Below are positions 4,247-42,350 of a DNA stretch of 54,361 nucleotides, piece after piece (the stretch's first letter is position 1; each line of letters starts with the position of its first letter). Source of the stretch: Thermoplasmata archaeon (GTDB lineage: Archaea; Thermoplasmatota; Thermoplasmata; Lutacidiplasmatales; UBA184). The DNA is taken from NCBI GenBank assembly GCA_030037875.1, contig JASHPV010000183.1, positions 1 through 54,361 on the forward strand, written 5' to 3'. Below the pieces are notes generated by a model. That model was not told where the DNA came from. It saw only the letters and a program-made list of their open reading frames with translations, and searched no databases. Made by a program: the position numbers and the translations under genes.

Positions 4247-4996
4247 TCAGGGAGCAACGTGGAAGCCCGTGTCATCGATGGTCAACCGACGGATCTGGGT
4301 GCGCTCGGGGTGATTCCGGAGCTTCCGGACCTCGAGCGTGTGTTCGAAAGTGGCCCCGTTGGGGTCGGAGCGCAAGGTGATGCCGAGGTCCGCGACGTCC
4401 TCGAGCATCGCACTGGACTTGTTGTCGAGCGACGCCTGCTGCACCGTTACCATCGCCTTGCCTCCCAGGAGTTGGGTCCGGGAGCGAATCTGCCGGACCA
4501 GGTTGACCACCTCGGACACTTCGAGCAGCTCGAGGAGAAAGTCGAGCGAGTCCAGGACCAAACGGAACGGCGCATCGAGGCCCGCGAGGTCGTTCAGGAA
4601 CCGGTTCACTAGACTGTAGGGTCCGACGGAGACCTCCGCCCGGCGAGCGTTCCGGAGGTCGTCCAACCGGAGCCCCCGTTCCCGGATCCTAGAGACCTCG
4701 AGCTGGGGCTCCAGTACGCGCTGGTAGTAATCATCGGAAAGGTTCCCGAAGCGGATCGGCTCCGGATCCCAGTGAAAGGAGCGGAACGCGTCCTGCGAAT
4801 CGATCGTACGTTCGGCGGTAGTGTAGTAGAACACGGGCGTCGAGCCGACCCCGGCTTGGGCGAACTGTTTCGCCAGGAGGTGGGAGCCGGACCCAGGCGT
4901 GCCGATAACCACGATGAGGCAGCCGGGAGGCAGGTAAGGAGAGAGGGCGGCGTCGATATCGGGAATGCCCATGAGCGGCTCGTCCCCGGTCGTCAC
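4247..4996 (-). CDS. RAD55/KaiC-like ATPase-fold protein with degenerate Walker A
   Basis: GIPDID, GTPGSGSH (Lys lost), LVLDSL Walker B, VRKLRN motif. Confidence 0.8.
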   Translation of the reverse strand: MTTGDEPLMGIPDIDAALSPYLPPGCLIVVIGTPGSGSHLLAKQFAQAGVGSTPVFYYTTAERTIDSQDAFRSFHWDPEPIRFGNLSDDYYQRVLEPQLEVSRIRERGLRLDDLRNARRAEVSVGPYSLVNRFLNDLAGLDAPFRLVLDSLDFLLELLEVSEVVNLVRQIRSRTQLLGGKAMVTVQQASLDNKSSAMLEDVADLGITLRSDPNGATFEHTLEVRKLRNHPERTQIRRLTIDDTGFHVAP

Positions 4997-5577
4997 GAGC
5001 TGCCCCCGAGCGTGAACGATTCGTCGACCACGAGGGCGAGGATCCGGTCGAGCTCGGTTCCCTCGGTCTCCGAGGTGGAGAACAGGACGGTGAGCACCGA
5101 TCGCGTCTTCAGGTTGTTCACGAGGATATGGAAGAACTCCGACAGGACCTCCGGGGCGTTGTGGACGGCCAGGGAATTCACCGAGTCAATGATGACCATG
5201 TTGCGCTGGCTAGGGTGCCTCCGGAGCAGGTACTCGATCCGAAGCATGATCCCCTCGAGCATGGTGGGGCTCTCCACGTACGAGGCGTTGGGCAGGGTGT
5301 CCTGGTAGCTCATCATCAGGTGAGAAATGGCGTCCACGAAGGAGAGCCGGGTGGAGGGGATGTCGAGCGCCTGCAGCAGACTCCAGACGAGCGAAGCGGG
5401 ATTCGTCACCGAGACGTAAATCGTGTGCGAGTTCGTCTCGCCCCCGAGGTCACGGACCGTGAGGCCGAGCGCCGCCAGATAATTGTCCGCGTAATCCCGC
5501 GCGCCCAGTCGGAGGGCCACCGTCCCACCGCTGGTGAACGACCGCAGCCGGTCGGCTATCTCGGATTCGCGGGCCAT
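4993..5577 (-). CDS. Inactive RecA/KaiC-fold protein (DUF7504/DUF835-like)
   Basis: IYVSVTNP, FVDAIS, VIIDSVNSL..HN; no Walker A; 4-nt overlap with the downstream gene. Confidence 0.7.
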   Translation of the reverse strand: MARESEIADRLRSFTSGGTVALRLGARDYADNYLAALGLTVRDLGGETNSHTIYVSVTNPASLVWSLLQALDIPSTRLSFVDAISHLMMSYQDTLPNASYVESPTMLEGIMLRIEYLLRRHPSQRNMVIIDSVNSLAVHNAPEVLSEFFHILVNNLKTRSVLTVLFSTSETEGTELDRILALVVDESFTLGGSS

Positions 5578-5581
5578 GAGC

Positions 5582-6370
5582 CTAGGCAGTCTCCAATCGG
5601 CCGCCTTTGAGGAACGGCGCCATGAGCAGGCCGATCGGCGTGAGCTCGATGACGTACTGGGCCCGCGAGTGAACGGTTCCCCGCATCTTGATGATCTGCA
5701 GCACGCGCAGCATGTCGCCCCGGCGACGAACGTTCGAGAGCATCACGACCCCGTCGACAATCGCTTCTTCCACCCCATACAGCGAGTGGACGCCCGGTAC
5801 CGCCCCCACCTCGGCGACCATCAACGACGTGGTGCCGAGCTCCGAGAACGCCTGGGCCAACTTGAGGATGAAATCTCGGGCCTTCTCCTCGCTCCGAACC
5901 CGGAACCCCACCGAGGTTAGGGAATCCACGACGACGCGCCGGGCCCCGCTCTCCCGGACAAGGTCTTGAATCGTGCGAACCAGGATGTCCACCTCACCGG
6001 GCTTGAGTTCCTCTCGGTTGAGACCGAGACGGTCGTAGACTATCGGGAGGTCCACGATGGTGACCAGGTTGTTGTTCACGAGATCGGTGTGGAAGAACTC
6101 GAAGGTGCTGAAGTTCTGCATGAGTTTGGCCGACGCTTCGGTCACAGAGATGAAGAGTCCCTTCTCGCCCCGTTCCGCGCCCCGGACGAGGAACTCGAGG
6201 CAGAGCGTCGTCTTGCCCGTGCCGACACCCCCGGCCACGAGCACCATGTTCGCGCGCGGGATTCCACCCCCGAGAATGTTGTCGAGGCCCTCGATACCAG
6301 TGACACATCGGTCCGCCAGTGCGTCTGTGGAGGGAGTCGTCGCCGGCGGGCCGGGGCGTGTTCCGCTCAC
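5582..6370 (-). CDS. Single-domain KaiC-like ATPase
   Basis: TGIEGLD..LGGG.P, Walker A GGVGTGKT, VVVDSL, IIKMRGT.HS. Start placed at GTG 6370, just downstream of an AT-rich TTTTAG element at ~6393-6398. Confidence 0.9.
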   Translation of the reverse strand: MSGTRPGPPATTPSTDALADRCVTGIEGLDNILGGGIPRANMVLVAGGVGTGKTTLCLEFLVRGAERGEKGLFISVTEASAKLMQNFSTFEFFHTDLVNNNLVTIVDLPIVYDRLGLNREELKPGEVDILVRTIQDLVRESGARRVVVDSLTSVGFRVRSEEKARDFILKLAQAFSELGTTSLMVAEVGAVPGVHSLYGVEEAIVDGVVMLSNVRRRGDMLRVLQIIKMRGTVHSRAQYVIELTPIGLLMAPFLKGGRLETA

Positions 6371-6577
6371 GAGGGCGGGAGCCGGGGCTATGCTAAAATG
6401 CTTACCGCCGTGGATTTCTCCGGTCCTGCTCGCCGGCCGTCCGGGACCCAAGCGGGCCCGGTGGTCCCGGCAAATCCCACGGGCTCCCGAGTGAACTGTA
6501 GCGGGTTTGGGCGACCGGTTCCGGATTCCGGGCGATTCGGAAGAATACGGTGGGAACGGATAACCGCCACCGCCGGG

Positions 6578-8116
6578 CTATGGGCTCGAAGGCGGCCCGC
6601 GGGGAGACGGGTTCCACATGAAGCATTGGGAACAGCGCAACGGCCCACCCGCACCCATGAGATCATGGAAGCAATCCGTGCAGAAGGGGCGACCGCAGTC
6701 CACGCATCCCGACAACCCCGAGGCGGTCCCGACCCGCCGGTTGCACCGTACGCACGCGACGGGGCCGGCCGCGGTACTCGTGCCGGTCTCCGGCGAACGG
6801 GGGAGACCCTGATTCGGAACCGGCTCAGAGGAAAGTAGGGCGGGGGCCGGGATTTCGCTGGGGGGAGCTTGCGTGTCGGTGAGCAACTCCGGTCGCCCCT
6901 CGGTGGAAACCACTGGTCCTAGAACGGTTTCAAGGGGTTCCGCCGAGGGTGAGGGCGGTTCCGGGGCCGTTCCTTTGTACTCGTCGGGCGCGGATTCCAC
7001 CGGGTCAGGGGCGGGGAGGCTCGAGGACGGAGGTATGTCGGAGATCACAGGTCGCGCCTCCCCTGGTACGTCTGGTGGCAAGTCAGATCGGCCGAGGCGT
7101 AGCGCGCGAGCGGACATCCGCGCCGCGAGTGAGCGAATGGGAGACTCGACTGGCGGAGCGGCGCTCACCGAGGTCGAGCCAAAGGGACTCGGTTCGGTGG
7201 TGCTCTCTGCGGCGACCGTGCTAGTCGGTCCGGTTGGCTTGAGAGAAACGGCTTGTATCAGGCGCTGCCACGACGGTCGGGTATCTCGGTTATCGGTCGG
7301 AACCTCCGGCGGCGGGGGATTCTCCTCCGGCGTCGCCTGACTAACGGACCCCACTTCGGGGGTGGGCGAAGCGTTCAACGGGAGATCTTCGACCGGCCTT
7401 TCAGACACTGAGATGGTGGGCTCCAACACCGGAGCGGAATCGGGTGATTCGACCACCACCGGCTGAACCGATTCGGGAATCGCGCCGGAGATTTCGGCCG
7501 GCATTGACGGAGCAGGGTGACTCTCCGAAGCAACAAGGTCGGGAGTGGTGGGGGTATTCGATTCGGCTACATCGTCAACGGGTTCCGGAGCGGAATCCCC
7601 TATCGCCCGAGGTGGCTCTTGGGATTGCGCACCAGGTCCTCCGATATCGCGCCAAGAGCCAGGGATGTCGATCGGGAGGGGTGCTCCAGCAGTATCGGTG
7701 GCTCCGGCGAGAGTTACTGGTGTCGATGGCTGGGATGTGAACGGCTCCGGCCCGATTCGCACATCGATCAGGGTGGGTGTCCTCGGGGGGAGCGCCACGT
7801 CGTGTGCGGCGACGGGCAGATCGTGGTTCAGGGGAGTGACTGGAGAGTAAGTCTGACGCGCCGGCAGGATGAAGATGCCCCCGGCAGAGATCAGGCCCAT
7901 CCCCGCGAAGAGCGGCCAGAGCGGAAAGTGGTGGTCGGCCCCCAAGGTCAACCTCAGAACCCCGGATGCTGCGGCCGCGCCGAGAAGAAGCACTGTGAGT
8001 GCGATCAAAGGAGCGCTCCCGACCACTTTCTCCTTCACCGATTCAGCCGCTCGAGGCGTCGGGTCGGGCGGGGCCGGAGCGTCCTGGAACGTAGCGCGGT
8101 GGAACTCAGCTGACAT
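6578..8116 (-). CDS. Membrane-anchored Pro/Ser/Glu-rich protein with C-terminal Cys8 zinc finger
   Basis: Two N-terminal hydrophobic helices, ~350 aa low-complexity linker, CxxC-x12-CxxC-x4-CxxC-x12-CxxC. Confidence 0.75.
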   Translation of the reverse strand: MSAEFHRATFQDAPAPPDPTPRAAESVKEKVVGSAPLIALTVLLLGAAAASGVLRLTLGADHHFPLWPLFAGMGLISAGGIFILPARQTYSPVTPLNHDLPVAAHDVALPPRTPTLIDVRIGPEPFTSQPSTPVTLAGATDTAGAPLPIDIPGSWRDIGGPGAQSQEPPRAIGDSAPEPVDDVAESNTPTTPDLVASESHPAPSMPAEISGAIPESVQPVVVESPDSAPVLEPTISVSERPVEDLPLNASPTPEVGSVSQATPEENPPPPEVPTDNRDTRPSWQRLIQAVSLKPTGPTSTVAAESTTEPSPFGSTSVSAAPPVESPIRSLAARMSARALRLGRSDLPPDVPGEARPVISDIPPSSSLPAPDPVESAPDEYKGTAPEPPSPSAEPLETVLGPVVSTEGRPELLTDTQAPPSEIPAPALLSSEPVPNQGLPRSPETGTSTAAGPVACVRCNRRVGTASGLSGCVDCGRPFCTDCFHDLMGAGGPLRCSQCFMWNPSPRGPPSSP

Positions 8117-8223
8117 CGGATTCCTTCGCCCGGCCCCGAACGTCGGCCAACGCCGCTAGTCGAACAAGCCCTGGAAGCGGTTGGTCAGGGGCTGGCACGG
8201 CACCCCTCGAGGATGGATTTCCC

Positions 8224-8781
8224 CTATGGGCAAGTCCCCACAGCGCTACACTGCAGCCAGATCGCTTGGACACTGTTGATGATCGGGCCTGTGCTGCCGG
8301 CTCCGACGTCGTAGTAGAAGGTGAACACGACATTGGCCCCTGGCGAGGTGGCTTGGGTCTCCACGTAGGTAGTAACGGTCGTGATCGCGCCGCCCGCGCC
8401 GGTCGAGATGGTGAAGCTCAGCTCCAACTCGGAACTGGCAGTAGCCCCGGCGGCCTCTGTGAACTTCCAGAACTGCCCGACGTCGCCGGCCGTGACCGCA
8501 TTGACTGCGTAGGATGCCGCGCCTGCCGTGAATACCTGAGGCGCAGCCGCGGTGCTTCCAGTGATACTGGTCGTTCCGGCGGGAACGGTGGCGACCCCGA
8601 CACTGGTCTCACTCCACCACGCGGGGTTGGCTGTTGCGCCATTGGACACGCCCCCGCCGTTCTCTCCACTCCCATTGGTCACGGTCAAACTCGCGGCCAC
8701 GGCATACCCGGCTCCAAAGACGACCATGAGCAGGGCGATGAACACATAGGCCGTCCGTCGGTCAATTCCAATCTTCGTCAA
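8224..8781 (-). CDS. Secreted beta-rich protein, paralog 1 (candidate filament subunit)
   Basis: Start TTG 8781 after GGAGTGA SD. Signal peptide RRTAYVFIALL...AVAA. Shares YVETQ, WxFxE and the C-terminal Cys pair with two neighbours. Confidence 0.75.
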   Translation of the reverse strand: MTKIGIDRRTAYVFIALLMVVFGAGYAVAASLTVTNGSGENGGGVSNGATANPAWWSETSVGVATVPAGTTSITGSTAAAPQVFTAGAASYAVNAVTAGDVGQFWKFTEAAGATASSELELSFTISTGAGGAITTVTTYVETQATSPGANVVFTFYYDVGAGSTGPIINSVQAIWLQCSAVGTCP

Positions 8782-8901
8782 GGTCTCACTCCACCCGGTG
8801 GATACGCGTATTCCCGGGTCCGTGTATAAGAAACCGCGGGTGCGCATAGCGCCATATTAATACGCATTGCGGTCCGCCGACTTCGGGAGATCCCCCGCGG
8901 A

Positions 8902-8925
8902 CCGCCCCCGGTCGTCCGGGGGCGG
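8902..8925. repeat. Perfect 10-bp inverted repeat (intergenic hairpin)
   Basis: CCGCCCCCGG-TCGT-CCGGGGGCGG. Confidence 0.55.
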
Positions 8926-9014
8926 GATCGCTACCGGTTTCCGGACGGACGAAGGCTGGGACGACGCCGGTCCCTGTTACGGGCCGGGTCCGGACACTTC
9001 CGGTGCGCAGAACG

Positions 9015-9629
9015 TTAGGGGCAAGTACCTACTGCGGTGCACTGCTGGGACACTTGCGTGAAGGCCTGGACTGCGACCGAAGCCGGGGCTCCGGTCCCGG
9101 CATCGTAGAAGAACTGGAACACAATCGGGTTCGCGGGCGCCGTGCCTTGCGTTTCCACATAGACCGTGACCGTGTTCGTTGCACCGGTGATGCCGTAGGC
9201 AATCGTGAAGATGATCTCAAGCTCCGTGTTCACCGGGGCCGCGGTTCCTTCGGTAAAGTTCCAGCGCACCGCGAGGTGACCGGCGGTAGCCGGGTTGATC
9301 CGGTAGCTTGCCGCAGCGTGAAGAACCGTGGGAAATCGGGCGGCCCCACTCACGAAGCCTGGCAACGGCGCGTGCATGGTGTCCGCGAACGTGCCGTCGA
9401 GAGTCCAATAGGTGAGACTGGTGCTTCCCTCGTATCCCCCGCTTGCCTGCTCAGTCGTCCCGGCGGTGATGACAAGAGCCGCGACCACCCCGCCCGCAGT
9501 CGCCAACACCACCAAAACCACTGCGAACAGCATCGAGATGCGAGGGAGGGCACGGTTTCTAGCACCCCGTGGGAGCGCTCGTCGCCGCAGCGGACCTTCC
9601 GGGACATCCGCCTCCTGTTCGGTCAGCAT
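9015..9629 (-). CDS. Secreted beta-rich protein, paralog 2
   Basis: Hydrophobic signal ending VVAA; WNFTE, YVETQ, QCTAVGTCP. Confidence 0.75.
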   Translation of the reverse strand: MLTEQEADVPEGPLRRRALPRGARNRALPRISMLFAVVLVVLATAGGVVAALVITAGTTEQASGGYEGSTSLTYWTLDGTFADTMHAPLPGFVSGAARFPTVLHAAASYRINPATAGHLAVRWNFTEGTAAPVNTELEIIFTIAYGITGATNTVTVYVETQGTAPANPIVFQFFYDAGTGAPASVAVQAFTQVSQQCTAVGTCP

Positions 9630-10180
9630 GTGCCCGCTCCTCCCGAACAGAGCTGGGAGACCTCTTCCTCGGAGTTGAGGGAAATCGCGAGAGCCGATCC
9701 GGAATCCCAGTAGAACGTGAACTCCCAGTCGGGGGTGGGACCGGCCGCCTGCGTCTCGACGTACGCCACGATCGTGGTGATCGTGGGGCCAGCCCCAGTG
9801 GATACGGTGAAACTGAGCATCAATTCTCGATTCGCGTTAAATCCGTTGTCGGTCTCGTTGAATATCCACACGAGCGCCGTGTCACCGCCGGTGCCGGCAT
9901 TGATCATGTAGTCCGCGCTGGCCGAGGGTAGGGAGGTGGGACTCACCGCGCTAGTGCTGATCAGCGCCGGGGGCGTAGCGGGTGTGCTCAGGTTGTCGAT
10001 GGCCCCAATCTGATCCCAGTACTGCAGCCACGCGCCCGTATGATGGGACCCGTCGCCATTCTCGGCCGGGCCGGCGGTTACGGTAAGGCCCACCGCGGTG
10101 GCGAGTCCGGCGCCAAAAGCTATGGCAATCGCTACGACGACATAGGCCAAGCGGATTTTTTTCCGAATCCAGGGGAACAT
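9623..10180 (-). CDS. Secreted beta-rich protein, paralog 3
   Basis: Start ATG 10180 just downstream of minus-strand CTATAT; RKKIRLAYVVVAIA signal; WIFNE, YVETQ, CSGGAGTC. Confidence 0.75.
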   Translation of the reverse strand: MFPWIRKKIRLAYVVVAIAIAFGAGLATAVGLTVTAGPAENGDGSHHTGAWLQYWDQIGAIDNLSTPATPPALISTSAVSPTSLPSASADYMINAGTGGDTALVWIFNETDNGFNANRELMLSFTVSTGAGPTITTIVAYVETQAAGPTPDWEFTFYWDSGSALAISLNSEEEVSQLCSGGAGTC

Positions 10181-10371
10181 CCGTCCTTCGTGGTCTCGCC
10201 ATATAGACTCCCGGGGAGGCGTATTTCTGCGTATCGGCACAACGTCGCCCCCGTGGAGCTCGGACTATCCACGGGTGAAGTCTTCGGCGACCTGCACCAG
10301 AACCGCGACCCCAGGGCATAAAACGCCCCCAGCTTCCCGGACGTACGAAAGGTGGGGCGACCCGGCTCGGA

Positions 10372-10914
10372 ATGACCGTCTATATTGGACTCCTTCGAGC
10401 CGTGAACGTGGGCGGCTCCGGTAAGATCGACATGATCGCCCTTGCGGCGCTGTTGAGCCGTATGGGGCTTGGGGACGTGCACACCGTCCTCCAGTCCGGC
10501 AACGTCGTGTTCCGCACCGATGTCACGGAAGTGACCCCGCTGGAAGTTGCCATCGAGCGCGCACTTTCCGAGCAGCTGGGGCTCAGGACCGACGTTTTCG
10601 TTCGCACGCTCCCGGAATGGCGCTCCATCCTGAGACAGAACCCGTTTCCCCTGGAAGCGAAGACAGACCCGGCCCACCTGGTCGTTACGCTCCTGAAACG
10701 GGCTCCCGAACCGAGCGAGTGGAGAGACCTGGAACGATCCATTCCGGGCCGAGAGCGGATTCAAGGGGCCGGCCGCCACGCGTACATCGTTTACCCGGAC
10801 GGAATCGGCACTTCGAAACTCACTGCGGCTGTGATCGAGCGACAATTGTCGACGCGAAGCACGAGCCGAAACTGGAACACGGTACAGAGACTGGATCAAC
10901 TCGCTTCGTCCTGA
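10372..10914 (+). CDS. DUF1697 domain protein
   Basis: LLRAVNVGG...I.M, V.T.LQSGNVVF, NPFP, T.RNWNTV. Confidence 0.9.
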   Translation: MTVYIGLLRAVNVGGSGKIDMIALAALLSRMGLGDVHTVLQSGNVVFRTDVTEVTPLEVAIERALSEQLGLRTDVFVRTLPEWRSILRQNPFPLEAKTDPAHLVVTLLKRAPEPSEWRDLERSIPGRERIQGAGRHAYIVYPDGIGTSKLTAAVIERQLSTRSTSRNWNTVQRLDQLASS

Positions 10915-13295
10915 GATCGCTCGGTCGCCGGGTTTCCAATACTTCCCCCGGTCGCGTCGGACCCGGGAATGCCCCGCTTGGCCGGCAACATTTCGGCGAG
11001 ACGTTTCCGCGACAGTACCCAGAAGCTGCCGGCGTCGTCCTTACCGTTCCGGATCAGCGCGCCCGCCGAGGCCAGGAAGCGACCCCCGCTCCGTACCCAG
11101 CTCTCCGCGGTCCGAGGATCGACGGACCATCTCGCCCGCAGGTCCGGGAGATGCACGGTCAACTCGGCCCGGTCTCCCGAGCGTTCGACCCATTCGGTCA
11201 AGGCTTCCATCACGGGCGTCGCAGCGTCCGGCCGGGATGGGCCGTTGGGAATCGGACTTGTAGCCCGTTCGGATTTGTCGTGCACGATGGGGGTGGGTTG
11301 GTCGCCCGCCCCAACATCCGTCGGCACGATAGGCCGGAACGAGTTCGGATCCCGCTGTCCCTGGACCGGGCGAGACAACTGGACCCAGTGCGTTTCCGCC
11401 CCTTTGTCGATCAGGATGGCCGCCTCGCCCCGAGGTAATCGGAGGAGGCGCTCGGCCGTGACCTGCGGCACCCACCGGGAGACATCTCTCGCGTCGAACG
11501 GATCTCCCCGAAACAGCACCACGTCAGCCGAGTTGGTCGTAACAGCGTCCCGGACCATCTCTGGAAGGGAGCGCAGCGATTGCGTAACGCTCCAGACGTG
11601 GAGATTGAATCGCCGCCCCAGACGCAACATTTCCGCCACACCTTCGTGGGCGTACCATTGCGCCTCGTCCAGCACGAGAAACACTTTCGTTTGTCTGGTG
11701 CGCACGAGGGCCTCGTTCCATACGAGCGCGAGCACGACCGCGAGCAGGTACCGGGCCGCGGGTTCACCGACTTGGGGCGCGTCGCCGGAAATCACGGTGA
11801 TCCGGCCGGGGGTCACCGCAGCGCCGACGGACCAAGTCGGGGACCGGGCGTCCAGCATCTGCGTCAAGACCGGGCTCCGAGTTATCTCACCCAGTAGCCG
11901 CCGGGCACCGTCGCCGTCTTGGGGCGCGCGTTCAATCCGGCGTCGGATCTCGTCGACCGCTTCTCGAGCGCCGTCCGGTACGGTGCGCCGAGGAAAACCT
12001 TCGGGCGACAGTAACCGCTCGGCTAACGCAAGCGACGATCCGGGCCATTGGCCCGCGGCGCGCAGCGCTTGAAGCAACATCTCCTCGAGCCGCGGACCCC
12101 AAAAGGAGGACTCCGCGTACTGACCTGCCCGGACCCGGCGAAGCGCCGCGACGATATCGCCGAGCAACCGTTCACGGTGTGCCGCACCGTCGCTCCGTTG
12201 GGAAGCGACCTGGTGCAGGAGGTTCAGCGTCAGACCCGGCACGGCCGGCGAAACCCAGGAAACTTGGGGGCTCCTCGCATCCGGAACGCCCGACAGAAAC
12301 TCTCTCGCGGTGTCACCCACCGGATCGAACAGGATCATCGACCCCCACTGGGCGGCTTGCCAGGCGAGCCGGACGATGAGCGAGCTCTTTCCCATGCCCG
12401 TCTCTCCCAACACTAGCAAATGCCGGCCTTGTTCGGACTCGACCGGTAGGCCGACGAAGGAACCCCCCAGGTCTCGCCCAACCCAAAGCCGGGCTCGATC
12501 GGAGCCGTGGGCCGCAGTCGCGGCAATCGGGGTGGGCGGGGGAAACAATCCGACCAGCTCGGCCTCGGTCAGAACGGCATCTCTGCCTAGTCTGGCGAGA
12601 GGGGAGCCGGCGGACCGACAGGCGAACCGGTTTCCGCCTTCAAGATGGGATGTGGCCTCGAGCAGGTGGGCTACCTGGGAACCCGCATCGTCAGCCTTGC
12701 GCCGGGCATCGATCAAAATCCTTCCGGAGACCCTCCACCGCAACCCGGTGCGGCGGGCTTCCTCACGGTCTTTGAGGATGCGTTCTGGAAGTGTCCGTAT
12801 GCGCTCGTCCTTCGCGAGCGGCTCGCCCCATTCGGGGAGCCATTTCTCTCGCGAGGGGAAGCCAAGGTCTGGAACCAGTTCCCACTCCACGGCGACACCG
12901 GCTCGGCTCATGCGGAGTTGCCCCAGCACCGTCTCGGACCATGGGGGCTCATCCGGCGGGGTAGGAAACGGCTGTTCGGCCGCTCCGCCTTGCGTCACTC
13001 TGAACTCGGGTCGCGACTGGGCGAGCCCGTGCCAATCGCCCGCGGCATGCCATTGTCCCATCTCATAGGCGGAGGAGAGTCCGAAATGCAACCATCGTTC
13101 CCCCACTGGGGACGAGACCCCCAGTACCACTCCCCCCGAGTCGCCGGAGGACCATCGCATTCGAAGAGGGATTCCGAGCCCATGAGCCGCGCGAAGAGCC
13201 CGACGCAGGCGACCGACGAATTGTCGGGTTTGATCGGGAGAGACCAAGGCGGAGACCGGCCGGTACCCGTAGCTCCGCCACCCCCGCTGCAGCAC
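10896..13295 (-). CDS. HerA/VirB4/VirD4-superfamily P-loop ATPase
   Basis: HLLVLGETGMGKS Walker A, FDPVGD, LVLDEAQ Walker B, GRRFNL....TQ motif; possible C-terminal winged helix. Confidence 0.85.
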   Translation of the reverse strand: MLQRGWRSYGYRPVSALVSPDQTRQFVGRLRRALRAAHGLGIPLRMRWSSGDSGGVVLGVSSPVGERWLHFGLSSAYEMGQWHAAGDWHGLAQSRPEFRVTQGGAAEQPFPTPPDEPPWSETVLGQLRMSRAGVAVEWELVPDLGFPSREKWLPEWGEPLAKDERIRTLPERILKDREEARRTGLRWRVSGRILIDARRKADDAGSQVAHLLEATSHLEGGNRFACRSAGSPLARLGRDAVLTEAELVGLFPPPTPIAATAAHGSDRARLWVGRDLGGSFVGLPVESEQGRHLLVLGETGMGKSSLIVRLAWQAAQWGSMILFDPVGDTAREFLSGVPDARSPQVSWVSPAVPGLTLNLLHQVASQRSDGAAHRERLLGDIVAALRRVRAGQYAESSFWGPRLEEMLLQALRAAGQWPGSSLALAERLLSPEGFPRRTVPDGAREAVDEIRRRIERAPQDGDGARRLLGEITRSPVLTQMLDARSPTWSVGAAVTPGRITVISGDAPQVGEPAARYLLAVVLALVWNEALVRTRQTKVFLVLDEAQWYAHEGVAEMLRLGRRFNLHVWSVTQSLRSLPEMVRDAVTTNSADVVLFRGDPFDARDVSRWVPQVTAERLLRLPRGEAAILIDKGAETHWVQLSRPVQGQRDPNSFRPIVPTDVGAGDQPTPIVHDKSERATSPIPNGPSRPDAATPVMEALTEWVERSGDRAELTVHLPDLRARWSVDPRTAESWVRSGGRFLASAGALIRNGKDDAGSFWVLSRKRLAEMLPAKRGIPGSDATGGSIGNPATERSQDEAS

Positions 13296-27933: not shown

Positions 27934-30801
27934 GTGTGGTGTAAAGGCACCGCCGCTGAACCCTCACCCACAAACCGGAAGGCAGGTGCCCGGTGCGGAC
28001 GCGGGGCGCCATCAACACGAAGGGCAAACACCATTCCTGTCGTCGCGCTCACCCTCCTCGCGGTCGTCGCGGTTGCCGTCGTGCCTCCGCTCCAAACGGT
28101 CGCGGCAGCGAGCGGGGCGAGCGGTCATCGGACGCCCCCGTCGCAGCCCACGCCACCCCCGAGTTTCAACTGCGGGAGCTATGGCCAATCCCTCGACGTC
28201 TTTTCCCCGAACCCCGCCGCGGGCATCGCCGGAACACGGTTCACACTCCAAGGTTCGGGCTACTACAACGCCCCGTCCCCGGGAAATTTCACCATCTGGA
28301 TGGCCAGTTACACCGGCGGCGATCTTCTCTACTTCACGAAGGTAACGGCCGCCGAATACGAACGGGAGTGGCTGAAGGATCAACCCTTCTGGGTGAACGT
28401 CACCGTACCCGGAGAGGAATCCGGGAGCTCGCTTCCCCCGGGAGCCTACGAGTTCTGGTCGGTTAACGACTCCACGACGGATACGGGCTGTGCCAACTAC
28501 CCGTTCACGTTGACTGCTACCCCCCCGGCGGCGCTAGGTTGTGTGTCCTGGAACGCGACACTCACCCTCCTCTCTCCGATTCCGGCCACCGGAGGACCGG
28601 AAACTCCCGTCGTCCTGAACGGATCGGGCTTCTCCGAGACGGGGGCTACCGGGATTTACTGGGCCAACACGACCGGGTCAGCCTATCAGCTGGTCGGGTC
28701 TGCCGGCGCGGAGCCCCCAGGCGACTTTTTCGAGCTCACCGTCGACGCCCCTTCCGGTTACGCAGCGGGAACCTATGTCTTCTGGGGGGTCGATGAGGAT
28801 TCCGATTGCGCGGGCGTGGTGTTCGTACTCACCGCCGCACCGGCCCTCACCTTGTCCGCCACGTCGGGTCCCCCCGGCAGTGTCGTAACCGGAATGGGGA
28901 CCGGCTTTGCATCCGATTCGACGGTGACCTTCACCTTCGACGGCGCCCCGGCCCCCTCGGACTGTGCGACGAACAGCACCGGCGACTTCCCGGGCACCAC
29001 AGGCCTGCCGTGTACCTTCACCGTGCCACCGGTTGCGTATGGAGACGACGGGGGAGACAACGTGGCCGCCACCGACGCGTCCTCGCATTCGGCCTCGGCT
29101 TCGTTCACGGTGTTGCCTGAGATCACTCTGACCCCCAACATGGGGCCGATGGGGGGTGAATTCACCGTCACGGGCATCGGGTTCAGCCCGTCGCCGGATA
29201 CCGCCACTATCACCTTCGATGGTAATCTGATAGACCCGATCACCGACCTTCCCGCGTGCGATAACGAGACATCCCTGATCGATCTCAACGCGACCGGGGG
29301 ATTCACTTGCACGTTCACTGTACCGCCGTTTGCCACGTTCGGAGCCAACGAAGTTCAGGGAATGGATACGTCATCGGGCGCGCTGACGGCCGCGGTGACG
29401 TTCACAGTCCCGCCTGAGCTCTCGATCACGAGCTCGCCCACGGTGGGCCCCATCGGGACTCCGGTAACGGCGACGGGCGCGGGATGGACCCCCGGGGACT
29501 CGATCGCGCTCTGGGTCGCTCCGGTCAGCGACGAGTCTCAGATCACCGTGCTGAATTGTGTGGGCGCGCCCTCCGGCGAACCGACCGTCGCCTCGACGGG
29601 CGGGTTCACCTGCGATTTCGACTTCCCGTCGGTAGCCCCCGGGGCGTACACCGTCGCCGCGTCGGATGCGTCCCATGTTACCTACCCGCCCACCGTCATC
29701 TATTCGGGGAACACGTTCTACCTTGTCGGCCCCCTAATCACCGTGAATCCGAGCGCGGGTCCGATCGGATCCACTTTCACGGTGACTGGTACCGGTTTCG
29801 AGCCCTTCCCCTCTACTGCGATCGTCAGCTTTGATGGCCAACAGATCACACCGACGGGCGGTTCGGACTGCTCGTTCAACGATGTGCTGATTACGCTGAA
29901 CACGACCGGAGGATTCGTGTGCACCTTCTCGGTGCCAGAATCCGCGGCGCTCGGGGCCCACGAGGTGCGGGGCGACGACACCGGCACGGGCCTTCTCACC
30001 CCGGAGCAAACATTCATGGTCACGCTGAGTTTCGCGACGTTGTCACTTTCGCCGGATCAGGGTCCCGTCGGGACCGTGGTGTACCTGGCGGGGAGCGGGT
30101 ACGCTTCATTGGCATTGTTCGATTATTGTTTCGAGGGAAGCGGGGCGCCGGCGGCCTGCGGCAGCTCCCGGGAGTTTCTGACCACCCCTGGGGGGGACAT
30201 TCCATCGGGGACGGCCATTCAGGTGCCCTCAGGTGAAAACGCTCAGGTGGTGGTGTCCGCCCTCACGACCGGTACGCTGGAGGCCTCCGCGGCCTTCGCG
30301 TTGACCATCCCGTATGTCGAGACGGTGAGCTCGACCACGGGCACTTCGGGGTCCGCGACCTTCACCGTCAGCGGGCTGGCGGACAGCACGGCGTACTATG
30401 TCTATCTCGATACGGTACAAGGGGTGGCCTCAGTCACCTCCTACAACCCCCTGGGTACATGCACTTCCTCCGCGACCGGTGTGCTGACCGCCTGTACGGT
30501 CCCCATTCCGCACGGGCTCAGCGCGGGAACGTACTACGTAGATCTGTTCCAGGACCCTTCGCCGCCGCCTTTCATCTTCTCGGTGTTCAATTTCACAATC
30601 GCCCCCGCATCCTCGGCCGGGAACCATTTCTTCCTGTTTGGACTCACGACCCTCGAGCTCCTGATCATCGGGCTCGCCGTGATTCTGATCGCGGTACTGG
30701 CGGTAGGGATAACGATCGCACGACGACGAAGGCCGGCCCCCAGACCCCCAGCGCGTACGACGGGAACCGCTCCGAAGAGTCCTCCCAAATCGTCCTCTTA
30801 A
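27934..30801 (+). CDS. Cell-surface protein with ~8 Ig-like (IPT/TIG-like) repeats and C-terminal membrane anchor
   Basis: Signal peptide; repeated 'xTxxP..GP.G...T..G.GF' starts; paired Cys; many N-x-S/T sequons; TM helix followed by RRRR. Confidence 0.85.
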   Translation: MWCKGTAAEPSPTNRKAGARCGRGAPSTRRANTIPVVALTLLAVVAVAVVPPLQTVAAASGASGHRTPPSQPTPPPSFNCGSYGQSLDVFSPNPAAGIAGTRFTLQGSGYYNAPSPGNFTIWMASYTGGDLLYFTKVTAAEYEREWLKDQPFWVNVTVPGEESGSSLPPGAYEFWSVNDSTTDTGCANYPFTLTATPPAALGCVSWNATLTLLSPIPATGGPETPVVLNGSGFSETGATGIYWANTTGSAYQLVGSAGAEPPGDFFELTVDAPSGYAAGTYVFWGVDEDSDCAGVVFVLTAAPALTLSATSGPPGSVVTGMGTGFASDSTVTFTFDGAPAPSDCATNSTGDFPGTTGLPCTFTVPPVAYGDDGGDNVAATDASSHSASASFTVLPEITLTPNMGPMGGEFTVTGIGFSPSPDTATITFDGNLIDPITDLPACDNETSLIDLNATGGFTCTFTVPPFATFGANEVQGMDTSSGALTAAVTFTVPPELSITSSPTVGPIGTPVTATGAGWTPGDSIALWVAPVSDESQITVLNCVGAPSGEPTVASTGGFTCDFDFPSVAPGAYTVAASDASHVTYPPTVIYSGNTFYLVGPLITVNPSAGPIGSTFTVTGTGFEPFPSTAIVSFDGQQITPTGGSDCSFNDVLITLNTTGGFVCTFSVPESAALGAHEVRGDDTGTGLLTPEQTFMVTLSFATLSLSPDQGPVGTVVYLAGSGYASLALFDYCFEGSGAPAACGSSREFLTTPGGDIPSGTAIQVPSGENAQVVVSALTTGTLEASAAFALTIPYVETVSSTTGTSGSATFTVSGLADSTAYYVYLDTVQGVASVTSYNPLGTCTSSATGVLTACTVPIPHGLSAGTYYVDLFQDPSPPPFIFSVFNFTIAPASSAGNHFFLFGLTTLELLIIGLAVILIAVLAVGITIARRRRPAPRPPARTTGTAPKSPPKSSS

Positions 30802-37636: not shown

Positions 37637-40600
37637 TCAAGTGGGAGCGACGGGGAAGGCGACCTTCAACATCTCAACCTCTCCCGGGGTCAAAAGTCGA
37701 GGGTTGACCGGCACCCACACCGCGGTCCCGGAGGCCTGGGCTCGCACGTGCAGCTCCCGGAGCAGTTTCAACACGGGCGCCAGCGTGTTGACCGTGACGA
37801 GGTACTCGAAGCCTTCGAGCAGCACCGCACTGACGTGGCCCTCTCCCAGCGCACTAACGAAGAGCGTCTCGAGCGCCGCGACGTCGCTTGGCCGCACCGA
37901 GTTCTGACGCCCGACATTGGAGAGCCAGATCACGGTGATGTCCCGAGTTCCGATGCGCCGGCGGAGCCGGTCCGGAAACTCTCGCGTGACGCAAAGACCC
38001 CGGCGGCCGACCGACACGGCATCGAGGAATCGGCTCCAGGCCGCGTCCGTGGTGTCCTCGACGAGGAGTTCGATGCCTTGATGGAGCAAGGACGTCGGCG
38101 CAGGTGCCGCTTCGGCCACGTCCGCGGACACGGGCGGTTTCCACGGGGGAAGCGGAACGGCTTCGGGTCGGGGAGCCGGCGGAGCCACTGCGCGGATCAC
38201 GGGAGGGGTCGCTGCGGGACCCGCGCGCGGGAGGGCGGGAGTGGAGACACTCGGCAGAGTCGGGACCGAGGCACTGGGAGACGCCGAGGAGATCGGTTCG
38301 GGCACCGTCGGTTCTGGGAGAGACTCCGGGGGCGCAGCCTCCGGTTCGGGAGCGGGCTCCGGCTCGGGAGGCTCAACGCGCGGGGGAGGCCAGACCCAGA
38401 TACGGTCCGGGACCGCTCCTCCGAAGTGGCGGACCACCTCCCGGGCGAGATACGGTCCGAATCCGGGCACGGTGACCAGCTTCTCGTACGGCGCGTGGGA
38501 AAGGGACTCGAAATCTGTGAATCCCGCGTCCCAGGCGGCGGCGAGCTTGGTGACACCCAAGTAGGGTGCGCCGACGGCCTGGTCGAGTTGCTCCAGCGTA
38601 CCGTGGAGGGTCGTCTCCCGGTTCCGTACCTCCTCACTCAAGAAATCCGGACCCTCGGACTCCACCGGTTCGAAGCGTACGGCCTGGCGCCCCCGTCGGC
38701 CAAGATGCCGGGAAACGCGGGCCTTGCGCCGTCCCACCGGTCGTGGGAGGCCCGGTACCCAGATCCGCCATCGCGTGCCGACCGCGGTCCGGCCATTCGT
38801 GGTCTCTCCAGGGATGAACCGCGTCCCGCTCGACACCGCCTCAAAGCGAGGTACGCGAAGAGACTGTGCAATCGCCACGGCATGGCTTCGGAGCTCCTCC
38901 TCGAGCGCCGGAGGCGCCTCGACCCAAACCTCCGTGATGTTCGAACCCGCCGGCGCGGAGGTCAGTCGTCGACGCGCCGAACGCACTACGCGGTACGCGT
39001 CGGGACCTAGCCCTAACATTAGGTCGAGCGCGGCGGAGCTGGTTCCTTGGGGGAGCTTGAGATACAGCTCTCCCTGGGGCGCCGGCAGCACCATCATCCC
39101 GGGAGGGAGCGCGTCGATCAGTTCGACCATCGACGGGAGCAGCTGTACGGGGCTCGCGCCGAGCACAACGCTGAGCGTCTGATTCCGCAGCGCCTCCTTG
39201 ACCCTCTTCCCGGGCATCTGAGAGACCAACGTGGCGATCCGCCCGGCGCTCGCCCGATAGACGCGCTGGAGCTCGGCCAGGTTCGGTTCGACGCGGATCT
39301 GGCGGCCTTCCCACGGGCGGGCCGGTGAGGCGATCTCGATGCTCTCGGTTGGAAGCACGCGCGTGAGAACGGGCAGCAGGGCCTGGAGTTCCGCGGCGAC
39401 CGCCTCGTCGCGCGCATTGACCACGACGCTGGCCCACCGAATCGAACGCGGCAACGACAGCCGGTGACGGGCCCGCTCGACGGCCAGGGCGATCGGAACG
39501 AGTCGGTCCAGCAGCTTCTCGGAGGCCGGATCGACGAGACTCTGTCGGACCGGGGCAAGCGGCGCCTCGAACAGGCTCCGGGCGTCGTCCCGAAGGGAAC
39601 GGTCGATGGCCTCCATGGTGAAGGGAGCGAAGGGGGCCCACAGCTGTGCGAGCCCAGACACCACGTAGACCAGCACTCGTTCAGCGGCCGTTTTGCCGGG
39701 GCTTTGAGCGGCCTCATCGAGGCGGCTTCGAGCGATCAGCAGGTACTGCTCCCGGAGGTCGTGGTCGGCGAACCGGGTGATGCGGTCGAGCGTTTGGGGG
39801 AACCGCCCCGCGGCCAATCCCGCCAGCGCGTCGGCCCGAAACCGTTCGAAGCGGGACACGAAGGCCCGGTCCTCTTCGGGCAACGAATCTCGGACCCGGG
39901 CGAGGGACTGGTCCCCGAGCGGAAGGCCGTCCCGAGCGAGGCTTCCGGAGAGCTGGTACGCCACTCGCCAAAATCTCCGTAGGTGCCGCACATCCTCGGC
40001 CACTACGGACGCGAGGGGGGAGGCAGCCCGGCGTCGGGTGGCCATCCGAACGAGAGCGCAGCGGACCGCGTCGACGGGAGCGGCCGGGTCCACGCGAGCC
40101 GAGGCCTCGTCCACGGAACCGGTCGGCACGAGGATGAGGCGAGTGTCGGCCGGACGCGCGGACGCCGCGAACTGGCCGACGAGGTGGGTCAACAGCAGTG
40201 GCCCCCTCCGCTGTTCGGGCAATAGCAGTCCGACCCCATTGTCCGTGGGAAATGGGTTCATGCGGGCCCATCGGTAGAGCGCCTCATTGAACACCGGAAG
40301 CAGACGCCGCCGTACTTCGACTCGAACGCCTCCACAGGAGCATTTGGGACCCGTCCCCGCCGGTGCGAGCCGTGAGCAGCTTCCACACTCTTGGAGGGCC
40401 GGGTACGCGGGGTCCTCGGTGGTCCGTGCGTCGGTCGCCGGCCAAGGCACCACCTCCGACGCCAAGGGTAGCGCCTCCCCGGGCAGAAGCTGCTTGAAAA
40501 GGTACAACGTTTCGGCGTCGATCCGGTCCGGTTCCAGCCTCCACGCCCGGCCGGGCCTCCAGAAGAGACCGGTCCCGCAGTCCCCGCACCGCGGAACTCC

Positions 40601-41686
40601 GTGCCGGACGCGCAACTGAGCGAAGATGAGGGCACCGTCGTTCAGATCCCGCAGGATGAACGCCTCGGCGGTATCCACGGGGAGGCCCTGGTACTTGTGT
40701 GCCGATTGTCCTTCCAATCTCCCGTTAGCCGAGAGGACCGGCCATCCCGGGATCTCGAGTTTTTCGGCGATGCGCGCGTCCGACGCCCCGTGTGCCGGGG
40801 TCAAGGTGACGATGCCGGTACCGCTGTCTCCCACCTCGACCGACGTCTGGAGGAGCCCTCCCGGGCTGAGCAACGAGTAGAGTGGAGGGTACTCCGAGCC
40901 CAAGGGATGGACGTACGCCCGACCCTGCCAGGAGGCGCCGGGGTGCTCCTCGAGCACCTCGATCTCGGAATCGGGGAGCCACGCCCGGAGACGGTCCAAG
41001 CTGGATTTGCTGGTGAGAACCCTCTCTTCCGACCCCCGCCGGGTGAATTTTGCGATAACGTACGGCAGGGTCGGATTCAGGAGCACCGCCGTCGTGCCGA
41101 GAAGTTTCCAGGCCGAGTCCGTCCACACCAACGCGTCGACCCGGGGCTCGGTGTCGCGCAGGGCGAACCGGACGAGGTAAGCGGGACCCTCCTCGTCCAC
41201 GTAAACGAGGTTCGCAGGTCCCTTCGGCTCGCGGCAACGAGGACACCAACGGAGCGGGCCTTCCTTGGCGACCAGGACATTGGTCTCGGCCAACCGGCCA
41301 AGCATCCCATCCACGATCGTGGTGAGCTCCGGACGGACCGTCGGTTCCAGCGCACCATGGCCGTACCAGAGTCCCAACCCCTCCCACTGGGCCGCGGCCG
41401 TGGGGGGCACGCCCTCGCCGGGTCGGGTCCCGAACAGGACCGGTCCCGTGGCGGTTCGCTCGAGGAGAAGCTGCGCCCGCGCGGCCACGTCGGCGAGCAG
41501 CCCTCGCTGGAGCAACGGGAGAGGAACCTCCCCCCGAGACGGAATCCCGCCGATGGAGAGGTGCGTCGGAGGCCCCCCGCGATCCGGCCGGTCGTCCGGC
41601 CCCGGCGGCAGCCCCCGCCCCGACCAGAGCTCCCGGGCCTCGCTCTCGACCGCGTGGGGATCCAATACTGGGGCCAACGCGCGCAA
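37637..41686 (-). CDS. Degenerate isoleucyl-tRNA synthetase paralog fused to HhH, Pro-rich linker and DUF835
   Basis: Collinear IleRS landmarks (WCPRC, LVWT..W.L, GTGIV...PAHG..D, P.C..C.T.L, DR...SR, APF.PF..E); HIGH and KMSKS absent; C-terminal GLC.TR.FP..W.S...LLEG.EYL...N. Confidence 0.85.
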   Translation of the reverse strand: MRALAPVLDPHAVESEARELWSGRGLPPGPDDRPDRGGPPTHLSIGGIPSRGEVPLPLLQRGLLADVAARAQLLLERTATGPVLFGTRPGEGVPPTAAAQWEGLGLWYGHGALEPTVRPELTTIVDGMLGRLAETNVLVAKEGPLRWCPRCREPKGPANLVYVDEEGPAYLVRFALRDTEPRVDALVWTDSAWKLLGTTAVLLNPTLPYVIAKFTRRGSEERVLTSKSSLDRLRAWLPDSEIEVLEEHPGASWQGRAYVHPLGSEYPPLYSLLSPGGLLQTSVEVGDSGTGIVTLTPAHGASDARIAEKLEIPGWPVLSANGRLEGQSAHKYQGLPVDTAEAFILRDLNDGALIFAQLRVRHGVPRCGDCGTGLFWRPGRAWRLEPDRIDAETLYLFKQLLPGEALPLASEVVPWPATDARTTEDPAYPALQECGSCSRLAPAGTGPKCSCGGVRVEVRRRLLPVFNEALYRWARMNPFPTDNGVGLLLPEQRRGPLLLTHLVGQFAASARPADTRLILVPTGSVDEASARVDPAAPVDAVRCALVRMATRRRAASPLASVVAEDVRHLRRFWRVAYQLSGSLARDGLPLGDQSLARVRDSLPEEDRAFVSRFERFRADALAGLAAGRFPQTLDRITRFADHDLREQYLLIARSRLDEAAQSPGKTAAERVLVYVVSGLAQLWAPFAPFTMEAIDRSLRDDARSLFEAPLAPVRQSLVDPASEKLLDRLVPIALAVERARHRLSLPRSIRWASVVVNARDEAVAAELQALLPVLTRVLPTESIEIASPARPWEGRQIRVEPNLAELQRVYRASAGRIATLVSQMPGKRVKEALRNQTLSVVLGASPVQLLPSMVELIDALPPGMMVLPAPQGELYLKLPQGTSSAALDLMLGLGPDAYRVVRSARRRLTSAPAGSNITEVWVEAPPALEEELRSHAVAIAQSLRVPRFEAVSSGTRFIPGETTNGRTAVGTRWRIWVPGLPRPVGRRKARVSRHLGRRGRQAVRFEPVESEGPDFLSEEVRNRETTLHGTLEQLDQAVGAPYLGVTKLAAAWDAGFTDFESLSHAPYEKLVTVPGFGPYLAREVVRHFGGAVPDRIWVWPPPRVEPPEPEPAPEPEAAPPESLPEPTVPEPISSASPSASVPTLPSVSTPALPRAGPAATPPVIRAVAPPAPRPEAVPLPPWKPPVSADVAEAAPAPTSLLHQGIELLVEDTTDAAWSRFLDAVSVGRRGLCVTREFPDRLRRRIGTRDITVIWLSNVGRQNSVRPSDVAALETLFVSALGEGHVSAVLLEGFEYLVTVNTLAPVLKLLRELHVRAQASGTAVWVPVNPRLLTPGEVEMLKVAFPVAPT

Positions 41687-42269: not shown

Positions 42270-42350
42270 GCGGACCGTCCATCATTTTCGATGCGGGGTG
42301 CCTAGCCGTCCGGCAAGGGTCCGCGTCGCTTGGGGGATCGAGGGTTCGGC

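Follow-up and report, generated by a model that had tools for sequence, protein, structure and literature searches.

Overview of the locus

The window analyzed here is a whole stretch of 54,361 nucleotides from a Thermoplasmata archaeon (GenBank assembly GCA_030037875.1, contig JASHPV010000183.1, positions 1 to 54,361 of the forward strand). It contains three tandem, head-to-tail open reading frames (ORFs) on the minus strand (8224–8847, 9015–9629 and 9623–10240), which encode small proteins with predicted secretion signals and are referred to as paralogs 1, 2 and 3. An earlier note on this DNA had proposed that they are TasA/AbpA-like or new β-sandwich subunits, major and minor, of a fiber that polymerizes by donation of a β-strand. 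Directly 3′ of paralog 1 lies a fourth gene, missed in that note, which encodes a membrane zinc-finger protein (to be referred to as the partner). The four genes are as follows.

8224–8781, minus strand: paralog 1, last in the triplet and of the slow-evolving type; 185 amino acids from the TTG at 8781
9015–9629, minus strand: paralog 2, of the fast-evolving type; 204 amino acids, with the ATG at 9629 as the likeliest start
9623–10180, minus strand: paralog 3, the first gene of the triplet, of the fast-evolving type; 185 amino acids from the ATG at 10180
6578–8116, minus strand: partner gene; 512 amino acids

The window is archaeal, encoding fibrillarin, Nop56, an archaeal L10 protein and a proteasome assembly chaperone, and its G+C content is 62–69%. 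The genome assembly to which it belongs (the own genome) comprises 187 contigs with a total of 1.77 Mb, at a completeness of 90.5%. The stretch is present in 20 sequencing runs from 7 studies, all of them peat or soil metagenomes; there is no RNA dataset among these runs, which therefore say nothing on expression.

The ORF of paralog 1 would give 207 residues if started at its ATG, and that of paralog 3 gives 205 residues with a GTG start. The shorter starts listed above are favored for both, because most homologs (n = 47, range 173–228) have 182–196 residues. The stop codon of paralog 3 and the ATG of paralog 2 overlap (ATGCTGA), and a strong GGAGGAG, absent from the earlier account, stands before the latter, so that translation of paralog 2 appears to be coupled to that of paralog 3. 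In another study, a contig of a variant strain spans 6847–10400 with 95 substitutions and 0 indels, which argues that the reading frames are maintained.

A lineage-restricted family of small secreted proteins

Paralogs 2 and 3 share 40% and 43% sequence identity with paralog 1, respectively, and 44 columns are invariant among the three. The three tandem paralogs described in the earlier note are real, and every motif that it listed is present. These are the N-terminal strand motif (LTVTNGSGENGGG, LVITAGTTEQASGG and LTVTAGPAENGDGS in the three paralogs), WxFxE (WKFTE, WNFTE and WIFNE), EL...FT (ELELSFT, ELEIIFT and ELMLSFT), YVETQ (common to all three), and FxF..DxG (FTFYYDVG, FQFFYDAG and FTFYWDSG). 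The C-termini read CSAVGTCP, CTAVGTCP and CSGGAGTC, the last one (in paralog 3) being without the terminal Pro.

A family profile matches the three genes in the own genome with E values of 5e-64, 8e-61 and 1e-52, well outside anything expected by chance. A search with a profile built from the three proteins yields 117 cluster representatives among 1.84 billion, nearly all of them with 165–200 residues. The family is matched in 16 of the 301 genomes of the class, with 13 among the 37 genomes of the taxonomic family of the window and 2 weak matches elsewhere. One unpublished genome (G098) is included in the denominators of this survey and of the signal peptidase survey below, and no positive claim rests on it. 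Tandem copies are found in 10 of the 16 genomes, and a triplet in 7, including the own genome. The latter also has a fourth, distant copy at the end of another contig (C45:359–937, minus strand), with the C-terminus CSTGTTCP, and a possible fifth copy, again at a contig end (C172:5605–6396, minus strand), which has a signal-like start and ends in CSTATECP (Cys-x5-Cys-Pro).

Features were counted on 97 members of the family. The mature part has exactly two Cys residues in 93 of them; a Cys-x(3–7)-Cys arrangement is located near the C-terminus in 95, and Cys-Pro are the final two residues in 87. The C-terminal Cys pair noted earlier in the three paralogs is thus conserved throughout the family. 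There is a median of one N-glycosylation sequon per mature protein, and 21 members have none. The mature proteins of the window have masses of 15–16 kDa, pI values of 4.05–4.6, and one to three basic residues (for paralog 1, 156 residues, 15.2 kDa and pI 4.05).

No Pfam or NCBIfam model matches the paralogs or the family, and the homologs are named 'hypothetical' in their sources. A literature search, in which supplementary files were not covered, turned up no publication that describes such a family in Thermoplasmatota. Among the papers listed, only that on the bundling pilus, which deals with TasA homologs, contains both 'Thermoplasmatota' and 'donor strand'. The family is undescribed and is restricted to a lineage of uncultured Thermoplasmata from peat and soil.

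Secretion signal and export machinery

The proteins begin with a charged segment (a median of four Lys/Arg residues before the hydrophobic core), and a conserved AxA cleavage site closes the Sec-type signal in each of the three paralogs. In paralog 1 the predicted signal covers residues 1–29 (...AVA|A). The residue at −1 is Ala, Gly, Ser or Thr in all 97 members, the −3/−1 rule is followed in 96, and there is a Gly at −5 in 81. The hydrophobic core is poorly conserved (10–40% per column), which fits a cleaved signal and not a specific membrane helix. By all indications in the sequences, as the earlier note had it, the proteins are exported by the Sec pathway, with a canonical signal-peptidase-I site.

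Of 41 genomes of the taxonomic family, 8 have a match above the cut-off of the model for archaeal signal peptidase I (TIGR02228), and 3 of these belong to the 8 genomes of the same genus. In the own genome, a match below the cut-off is to an ORF at C55:1603–2868 (minus strand), which has C-terminal S26-like motifs of the bacterial type (SMVPTL, KRV and GD..S.DSR) and no obvious membrane helix. This is the sole signal-peptidase-like match in that genome.

A conserved class III prepilin site ([KR]-[GA] before the helix) was not found among the members, which instead show RRT, RA, KA or PR at this position, in line with the earlier observation on the three paralogs. A search for Peptidase_A24, which was positive in 12 of 14 control genomes, gave no match in the own genome (90.5% complete).

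Predicted structure of paralog 1

AlphaFold2 models were obtained for paralog 1 in its full-length form, with the 97-row alignment, and in its mature form only. The full-length model has a mean predicted local distance difference test (pLDDT) score of 89.7. It consists of a helix corresponding to the signal (residues 8–30, pLDDT 88–97), a coil (residues 31–55, pLDDT 64 and 60 by block), and seven strands between residues 56 and 177, with scores mostly of 90–97, and 76 in one block. The model of the mature protein (mean pLDDT 86.6) has core blocks of 72–97, and its first 26 residues are again in a coil (pLDDT 74 and 57). The core is therefore predicted with confidence as a seven-strand, immunoglobulin (Ig)-like sandwich, in agreement with the β-sandwich anticipated in the earlier note.

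The coil corresponds to an N-terminal extension of about 25 residues, located directly after the predicted cleavage site. It begins with the motif [LF]-T-[VI]-T, followed by the positions of Glu40 and Gly44, which are among the best-conserved residues of the family (Glu40 in 70 and Gly44 in 88 of the 97 members). The conserved N-terminal β-strand of the earlier note is thus conserved and strand-like by its sequence, but it is an unpacked coil in both models. As it is a coil also in the mature-only model, the extension does not appear to fold back on its own domain. A conserved segment that is unpacked on its own domain suggests, as far as the models go, an intermolecular role.

Foldseek searches found nothing at E ≤ 0.001 in the Protein Data Bank with either model, nor among the viral models of BFVD with the mature one. 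The best fold matches are ordinary Ig/FN3 domains and glycosidase accessory domains, with scores within the range reached by unrelated sandwiches. Several small Ig/FN3 domains superpose on the core almost end to end (76 of 76 residues for 7skp_B, 87–91 of 96 for 4gio_B, and 86–87 of 95 for CsgC). Language-model neighbors in the ESM Atlas all score below 0.9; they include clusters of the carbohydrate-binding DUF642, at 0.82–0.84, which serve as a lead only.

A cluster of acidic and aromatic residues is conserved in the family (Trp105, Glu109, Glu118, Glu141, Gln143 and Asp158). In a mutual information analysis of 181 sequences, which is noisy, the top pairs are Glu109–Gln143 and Asp100–Asp158. 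The sole co-varying pair that joins the strand motif (residues 32–36) to the core is Asn36–Thr154, at rank 30. Two pairs of higher rank, Thr50–Glu58 (rank 4) and Asn47–Phe104 (rank 8), involve the part of the extension that borders strand 1. None of these pairs is used as evidence.

A giant PKD/Big_9/cadherin-repeat protein of 3669 residues (P0153) has 19 repeats that match positions 129–180 of the family profile (E 1e-10 overall). This is a hint of some resemblance between PKD-type strands and the C-terminal half of the sandwich. P0153 was not retained as a specific relative, and the match is taken as a general sandwich likeness.

A membrane zinc-finger protein paired with the family

The partner has two predicted transmembrane helices near its N-terminus, connected by a short outside loop (R-x-P-L-W) and followed by a long Pro-rich linker and a C-terminal C4C4 zinc finger. 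The spacing of the finger is CxxC-x12-CxxC-x4-CxxC-x12-CxxC, and its eight Cys residues are invariant in all 13 sequences. The same build is common to these 13 sequences, with a PLLxxG helix, a short loop, an R-x-P-L-W helix, a V-x-x-P-R-x-E-W motif, a variable linker and the eight Cys residues; the relatives have 219–540 residues. As judged from this build, the partner is a two-helix membrane protein with its zinc finger facing the cytoplasm.

The neighborhoods of 22 loci of the family were surveyed, the window included. In 13 of them, an eight-Cys motif of this kind follows the family genes on the same strand; five contigs end within about 1 kb and four loci are without the motif. Of the 17 loci where the downstream DNA is long enough, 13 thus have it. 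A zinc-finger motif in one locus (L048) was not counted, being upstream and in a protein without membrane helices. The pairing is also observed at single-copy and distant members of the family (L014, L017, L050–L053, L055 and L056). The motif itself is rare, with five ORFs in the entire 1.77-Mb genome. We regard it as settled from gene order that the family is genetically tied to this predicted membrane zinc-finger protein, in a four-gene cassette in the window and a conserved two-gene module more generally.

Three more ORFs of the own genome have an eight-Cys finger (C59:2–874, plus strand; C168:2252–3310, minus strand; and C175:7609–8883, minus strand), and no family gene was detected beside them. 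The one on C168 also has a membrane hairpin. That on C59 starts at the edge of its contig, and it could be the partner not seen beside the copy on C45.

In the spacing of its eight Cys residues, the finger weakly resembles the cross-brace of RING, B-box and FYVE fingers, and there are weak matches to the B-box of Midline-1 and the FYVE finger of rabphilin (E 0.003–0.004, best 0.0032). In comparison with those families, however, all Pfam matches of the partner are below the cut-offs. We have met no case in the literature in which such a finger is fused to an N-terminal two-helix hairpin and paired with a secreted sandwich protein.

The other neighbors in the relatives are housekeeping genes (for primase, RIO kinase, a KH protein and formiminotransferase-cyclodeaminase, FTCD). 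No chaperone, usher, ATPase or peptidase is conserved near the family genes in the loci of the relatives. One of these loci has an unrelated MoxR-type AAA gene, and no other ATPase recurs.

Evolutionary rates and expression signals

A tree was calculated for 28 family genes, leaving out rows from loci L015–L018 and rows of at most 150 residues. The first- and second-position genes form one long-branch clade (support 80/88), the last-position genes are short-branched, and a distant subfamily splits off at 100/100. For 15 pairs from six triplets, genes in the same position have median identities of 32.0% (first gene), 34.1% (second gene) and 46.1% (last gene); the triplet of one genome (G260) was left out here as its arrangement is different. 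The slow evolution of the last gene as compared to the first two is in line with the division of labor suggested in the earlier note, and this pattern of sequence divergence fits major and minor subunits.

Paralog 1 was also noted earlier to have its own TATA-like element and Shine-Dalgarno (SD) sequence, and such signals are indeed found upstream. Eight-mers with at least seven A/T are rare in the window (113 of 54,353 positions), and two of them stand before the TTG at 8781. An SD-like GGTGGAG is located 8–14 nucleotides before this TTG.

8862–8855 and 8832–8825, minus strand: TATTAATA and TTCTTATA, two TATA-like AT-rich elements upstream of paralog 1
8902–8925, minus strand: perfect GC hairpin with a 10-bp stem and a 4-nucleotide loop, in the spacer between paralogs 2 and 1, immediately 5′ of the AT-rich elements and without a T-run behind it

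The AT-rich elements (8825–8862) make up a putative internal promoter for paralog 1. In addition, an AT-rich TCTATATG, missing from the earlier account, is positioned about 25 nucleotides before the ATG of paralog 3.

Possible functions of the family

Archaeal fibers that are assembled by strand donation without a chaperone have been recognized only since 2022, and two lineages of them have been described so far, one formed by the TasA superfamily and the other by the DUF1102/Taf type. To our knowledge, the Thermoplasmata of peat and acid soil have not been cultured, and next to nothing has been reported on their cell surfaces.

The explanation that we favor, at a probability of roughly 35%, is that the paralogs self-assemble by N-terminal strand donation without a chaperone, as one major and two variable subunits. 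After export and cleavage, the mature proteins would remain outside the cell and associate with each other. The N-terminal strand ([LF]-T-[VI]-T, followed by a Gly-rich hinge, E-x-G-x-G) would add to the β-sheet of a neighboring subunit, giving rise to a chaperone-free fiber or matrix, and a disulfide would close the C-terminal loop. The product of the slow-evolving last gene would be the bulk subunit, those of the first two genes, which evolve fast, would be minor or variable, and the zinc-finger membrane protein may act as the base or as a feedback regulator. This explanation is favored because of the conserved, unpacked extension at the cleavage site and the evolutionary pattern of major and minor subunits. 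Further points in its favor are the tandem copies in 10 of the 16 genomes, the poorly conserved core of the signal, the AT-rich elements and SD-like motif of paralog 1, the housekeeping nature of the other neighbors in relatives, and the build shared with solved strand-donating subunits.

Several observations weigh against it. The sandwich looks complete in the models, with seven strands in both and no missing strand or groove evident, and complete small Ig/FN3 domains superpose on it almost end to end. The earlier note had named a self-complete monomeric fold as grounds for giving up strand donation, and the seven strands and the superposition of whole Ig/FN3 domains go part of the way toward such a fold. 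The strand motif is just 5–6 residues long. Comparisons of sequence, profile and fold detect no link to any known strand-donating family. The match to the archaeal signal peptidase I model in the own genome is below the cut-off (E 0.0026). The partner cannot accept a strand, because it has almost no extracellular part. Finally, no two-domain tip adhesin and no fused or longer forms of the family were found, which is weak evidence.

The first alternative is that the proteins do not polymerize and are secreted or surface-located binding proteins. Their self-complete domains, similar to Ig domains or carbohydrate-binding modules, would recognize a ligand, for example a polysaccharide, a metal or some other component of the cell surface; the paralogs would have diverged in specificity, and the zinc-finger protein would relay or regulate. 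The complete seven-strand sandwich, with ordinary Ig/FN3 and glycosidase accessory domains as its best fold matches, is as expected from this, and so are the weak DUF642 neighbors (0.82–0.84, a lead only), the acidic and aromatic cluster with its top co-varying pairs, and the fast evolution of the first two genes. However, the conservation of an unpacked extension of 25 residues beside the cleavage site is left unexplained, no known binding family is matched, and all fold scores are within the range of unrelated sandwiches. We consider this alternative possible, if somewhat unlikely.

In the second alternative, the N-terminal helix is not cleaved. The paralogs would be single-pass membrane proteins with their sandwiches on the surface, and packing of their helices against the two helices of the zinc-finger protein would create a receptor-like complex for signaling to the cytoplasm. 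The tight gene pairing (at 13 of the 17 loci that could be assessed) and a partner that is almost wholly in the membrane and cytoplasm are consistent with such a complex. Residues 8–30 are modeled as a helix with good scores (pLDDT 88–97), Gly25 and Ala/Gly29 can be read as a small-xxx-small packing motif, and the signal peptidase match in the own genome falls short of the cut-off. However, the same residues make up a textbook cleavage site in nearly all of the members (Gly at −5 in 81 of 97, the −3/−1 rule in 96, and a suitable −1 residue in all 97), and the remainder of the helix is poorly conserved. Moreover, signal peptidase I exists in the lineage (8 of 41 genomes of the taxonomic family and 3 of 8 of the genus), and the own genome is incomplete. 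An uncleaved helix is therefore quite unlikely.

The third alternative places the proteins, as divergent members, in the TasA superfamily (TasA, AbpA, AbpX, CanX and the thread subunits). They share the size class, the Sec/signal-peptidase-I signal and the conserved N-terminus with those proteins, as described in the available parts of the sources (PMC9715654; PMC9245690; bioRxiv 10.1101/2024.12.30.630787). Searches for a relationship to TasA, AbpA and the threads, as called for in the earlier note, detected none by sequence or profile, nor among the fold matches listed. The family profile has 0 matches at E ≤ 10 among all chain sequences of the Protein Data Bank, and the Foldseek search of that database gave none at E ≤ 0.001; TasA, AbpA, thread, CanA and Taf proteins are not among the fold matches listed. 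Sets of TasA homologs (PF12389) and DUF1102 proteins (PF06510) from Thermoplasmatota genomes were also aligned and compared with the family profile to profile. The hhalign probability is 0.3% for the TasA homologs and 0.2% for the DUF1102 proteins of the same phylum. PF12389 is present in 17 of 301 Thermoplasmatota genomes, in none of the five sampled genomes of the taxonomic family of the window and not in the own genome, and it is not among the families listed for the 97 members. PF06510 is present in 7 of 301 genomes of the phylum and in none of the same five; it was not matched in the own genome, in a search whose controls were also silent. No SipW- or TapA/AbpB-like neighbor is found in the loci of the relatives. 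The TasA/AbpA-like identity suggested in the earlier note has thus found no support, nor has a Taf-like one in any of these tests, and membership in the TasA superfamily is very unlikely.

A type IV pilin-like subunit, which would keep its hydrophobic helix in the fiber core and carry an Ig-like head, shares the helix-then-sandwich build and, as in bacterial type IVa pilins, a C-terminal disulfide loop, but it is extremely unlikely given the lack of a conserved [KR]-[GA] site and of a recurring ATPase (the HerA-like ATPase of the window being unmatched in eight relatives' loci), the negative search for Peptidase_A24 in the incomplete own genome (12 of 14 controls positive), and the unstructured linker between helix and domain. 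Chaperone-usher pilins differ as well, since the models of paralog 1 have seven strands on which whole Ig domains superpose and no chaperone or usher genes are conserved near the family.

The strand-donation explanation can be extended to a further independent class of archaeal fibers. The subunits of this class would be Ig-like and unrelated to TasA and DUF1102/Taf, with a short N-terminal strand, a disulfide-closed Cys-Pro loop, no chaperone, usher or ATPase, and production or anchoring coupled to a cytoplasmic RING-like zinc finger on a membrane protein. Taken as a whole, this extension is unlikely on balance. If it is true, the coupling of a pilus to a membrane RING-like zinc finger would be undescribed for any pilus. 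A third unrelated subunit family would mean that the assembly principle arose repeatedly, and the constant pairing with the zinc finger would provide a first handle on the anchoring or regulation of such fibers. Even if the proteins do not polymerize, they constitute a new secreted family with a distinctive Cys-x-Cys-Pro end and a conserved two-gene module, which can now be searched for.

Other genes in the window

A P-loop ATPase of 799 residues (10896–13295, minus strand) adjoins the triplet and has weak matches to HerA (DUF87), AAA_16, TrwB/TraD and CedB-like proteins. It is possibly part of a mobile or DNA-transfer element. As an assembly motor for the paralogs it was rejected, as it has no tblastn match in the loci of eight relatives and is split from the triplet by a gene on the opposite strand. 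This gene, for a DUF1697 protein (10372–10914, plus strand; E 6e-37), lies between the triplet and the ATPase and is divergent from paralog 3. Three consecutive genes for KaiC/ArlH-like ATPases are located just 3′ of the zinc-finger gene (5582–6451, 4993–5577 and 4247–4996, all minus strand). Neither these nor the DUF1697 gene have a match in the eight relatives' loci searched.

Further away, an ORF of 955 residues with an IPT/TIG domain (27934–30801, plus strand) possibly encodes a large surface protein. There are also two very long open frames. The one at 37637–41686 (minus strand) has a tRNA-ligase anticodon-binding domain and DUF835 and may be more than one gene, and the one at 42330–46814 (plus strand) has no Pfam match and may be an artefact of high G+C content.

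Comparison with known archaeal fibers

By analogy, assembly of the paralogs would work like that of the archaeal threads, bundling pili or cannulae, without membership in those families. The general build matches that of the solved archaeal strand-donating subunits, which, in the available parts of the reports, have a Sec/signal-peptidase-I signal, a conserved N-terminus after cleavage and no chaperone or usher nearby (PMC9715654; PMC9245690; bioRxiv 10.1101/2024.12.30.630787).

The thread subunit of Sulfolobus acidocaldarius, Saci_0406, has a Sec/signal-peptidase-I signal, a conserved N-terminus after the cleavage site and a paralog in its cluster (PMC9715654, in the portion available). The present family is likewise small and β-rich, with the same type of signal and N-terminus and with neighboring paralogs. 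As far as that portion goes, neither system has a chaperone, usher or ATPase nearby or depends on a class III peptidase (PMC9715654). There is no detected sequence or fold similarity between the two, however. The tail of the thread subunit enters an acceptor site (PMC9715654, same portion), and no acceptor site is evident in the family. According to the same text (PMC9715654), the threads rely on an isopeptide Asp and on a YYY motif, in place of which the family has a Cys-x(3–7)-Cys-Pro loop and a zinc-finger membrane partner.

TasA, AbpA/AbpX and CanX/CanA are also secreted and chaperone-free, with paralogous subunit genes side by side, in the accounts available from PMC9245690 and bioRxiv 10.1101/2024.12.30.630787. 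The conserved acidic residues of the family could parallel the calcium sites of the cannulae, going by what is accessible of the latter source (bioRxiv 10.1101/2024.12.30.630787). The TasA-type subunits are jelly rolls, in contrast to the seven-strand Ig-like sandwich modeled for the family. AlphaFold folds the strand of AbpA back on itself, in the accessible text of PMC9245690, whereas the extension of the family stays free in the models.

For the Tat-fimbriae (Taf), of the DUF1102/Mth60 type, strand exchange without a chaperone-usher system has been proposed, with a membrane protein as the base, in the part of the source at hand (PMC11821415). Their dedicated peptidase (TafD) and two-domain tip (TafC), described in that part, are not present here, and the proposed anchor has a subunit-like domain that the zinc-finger partner is without (PMC11821415). 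The likeness lies in the organization of the subunits, which in the same part of that source are several Ig-like paralogs of about 17–19 kDa, encoded in one cluster, with one major subunit and several minor ones (PMC11821415).

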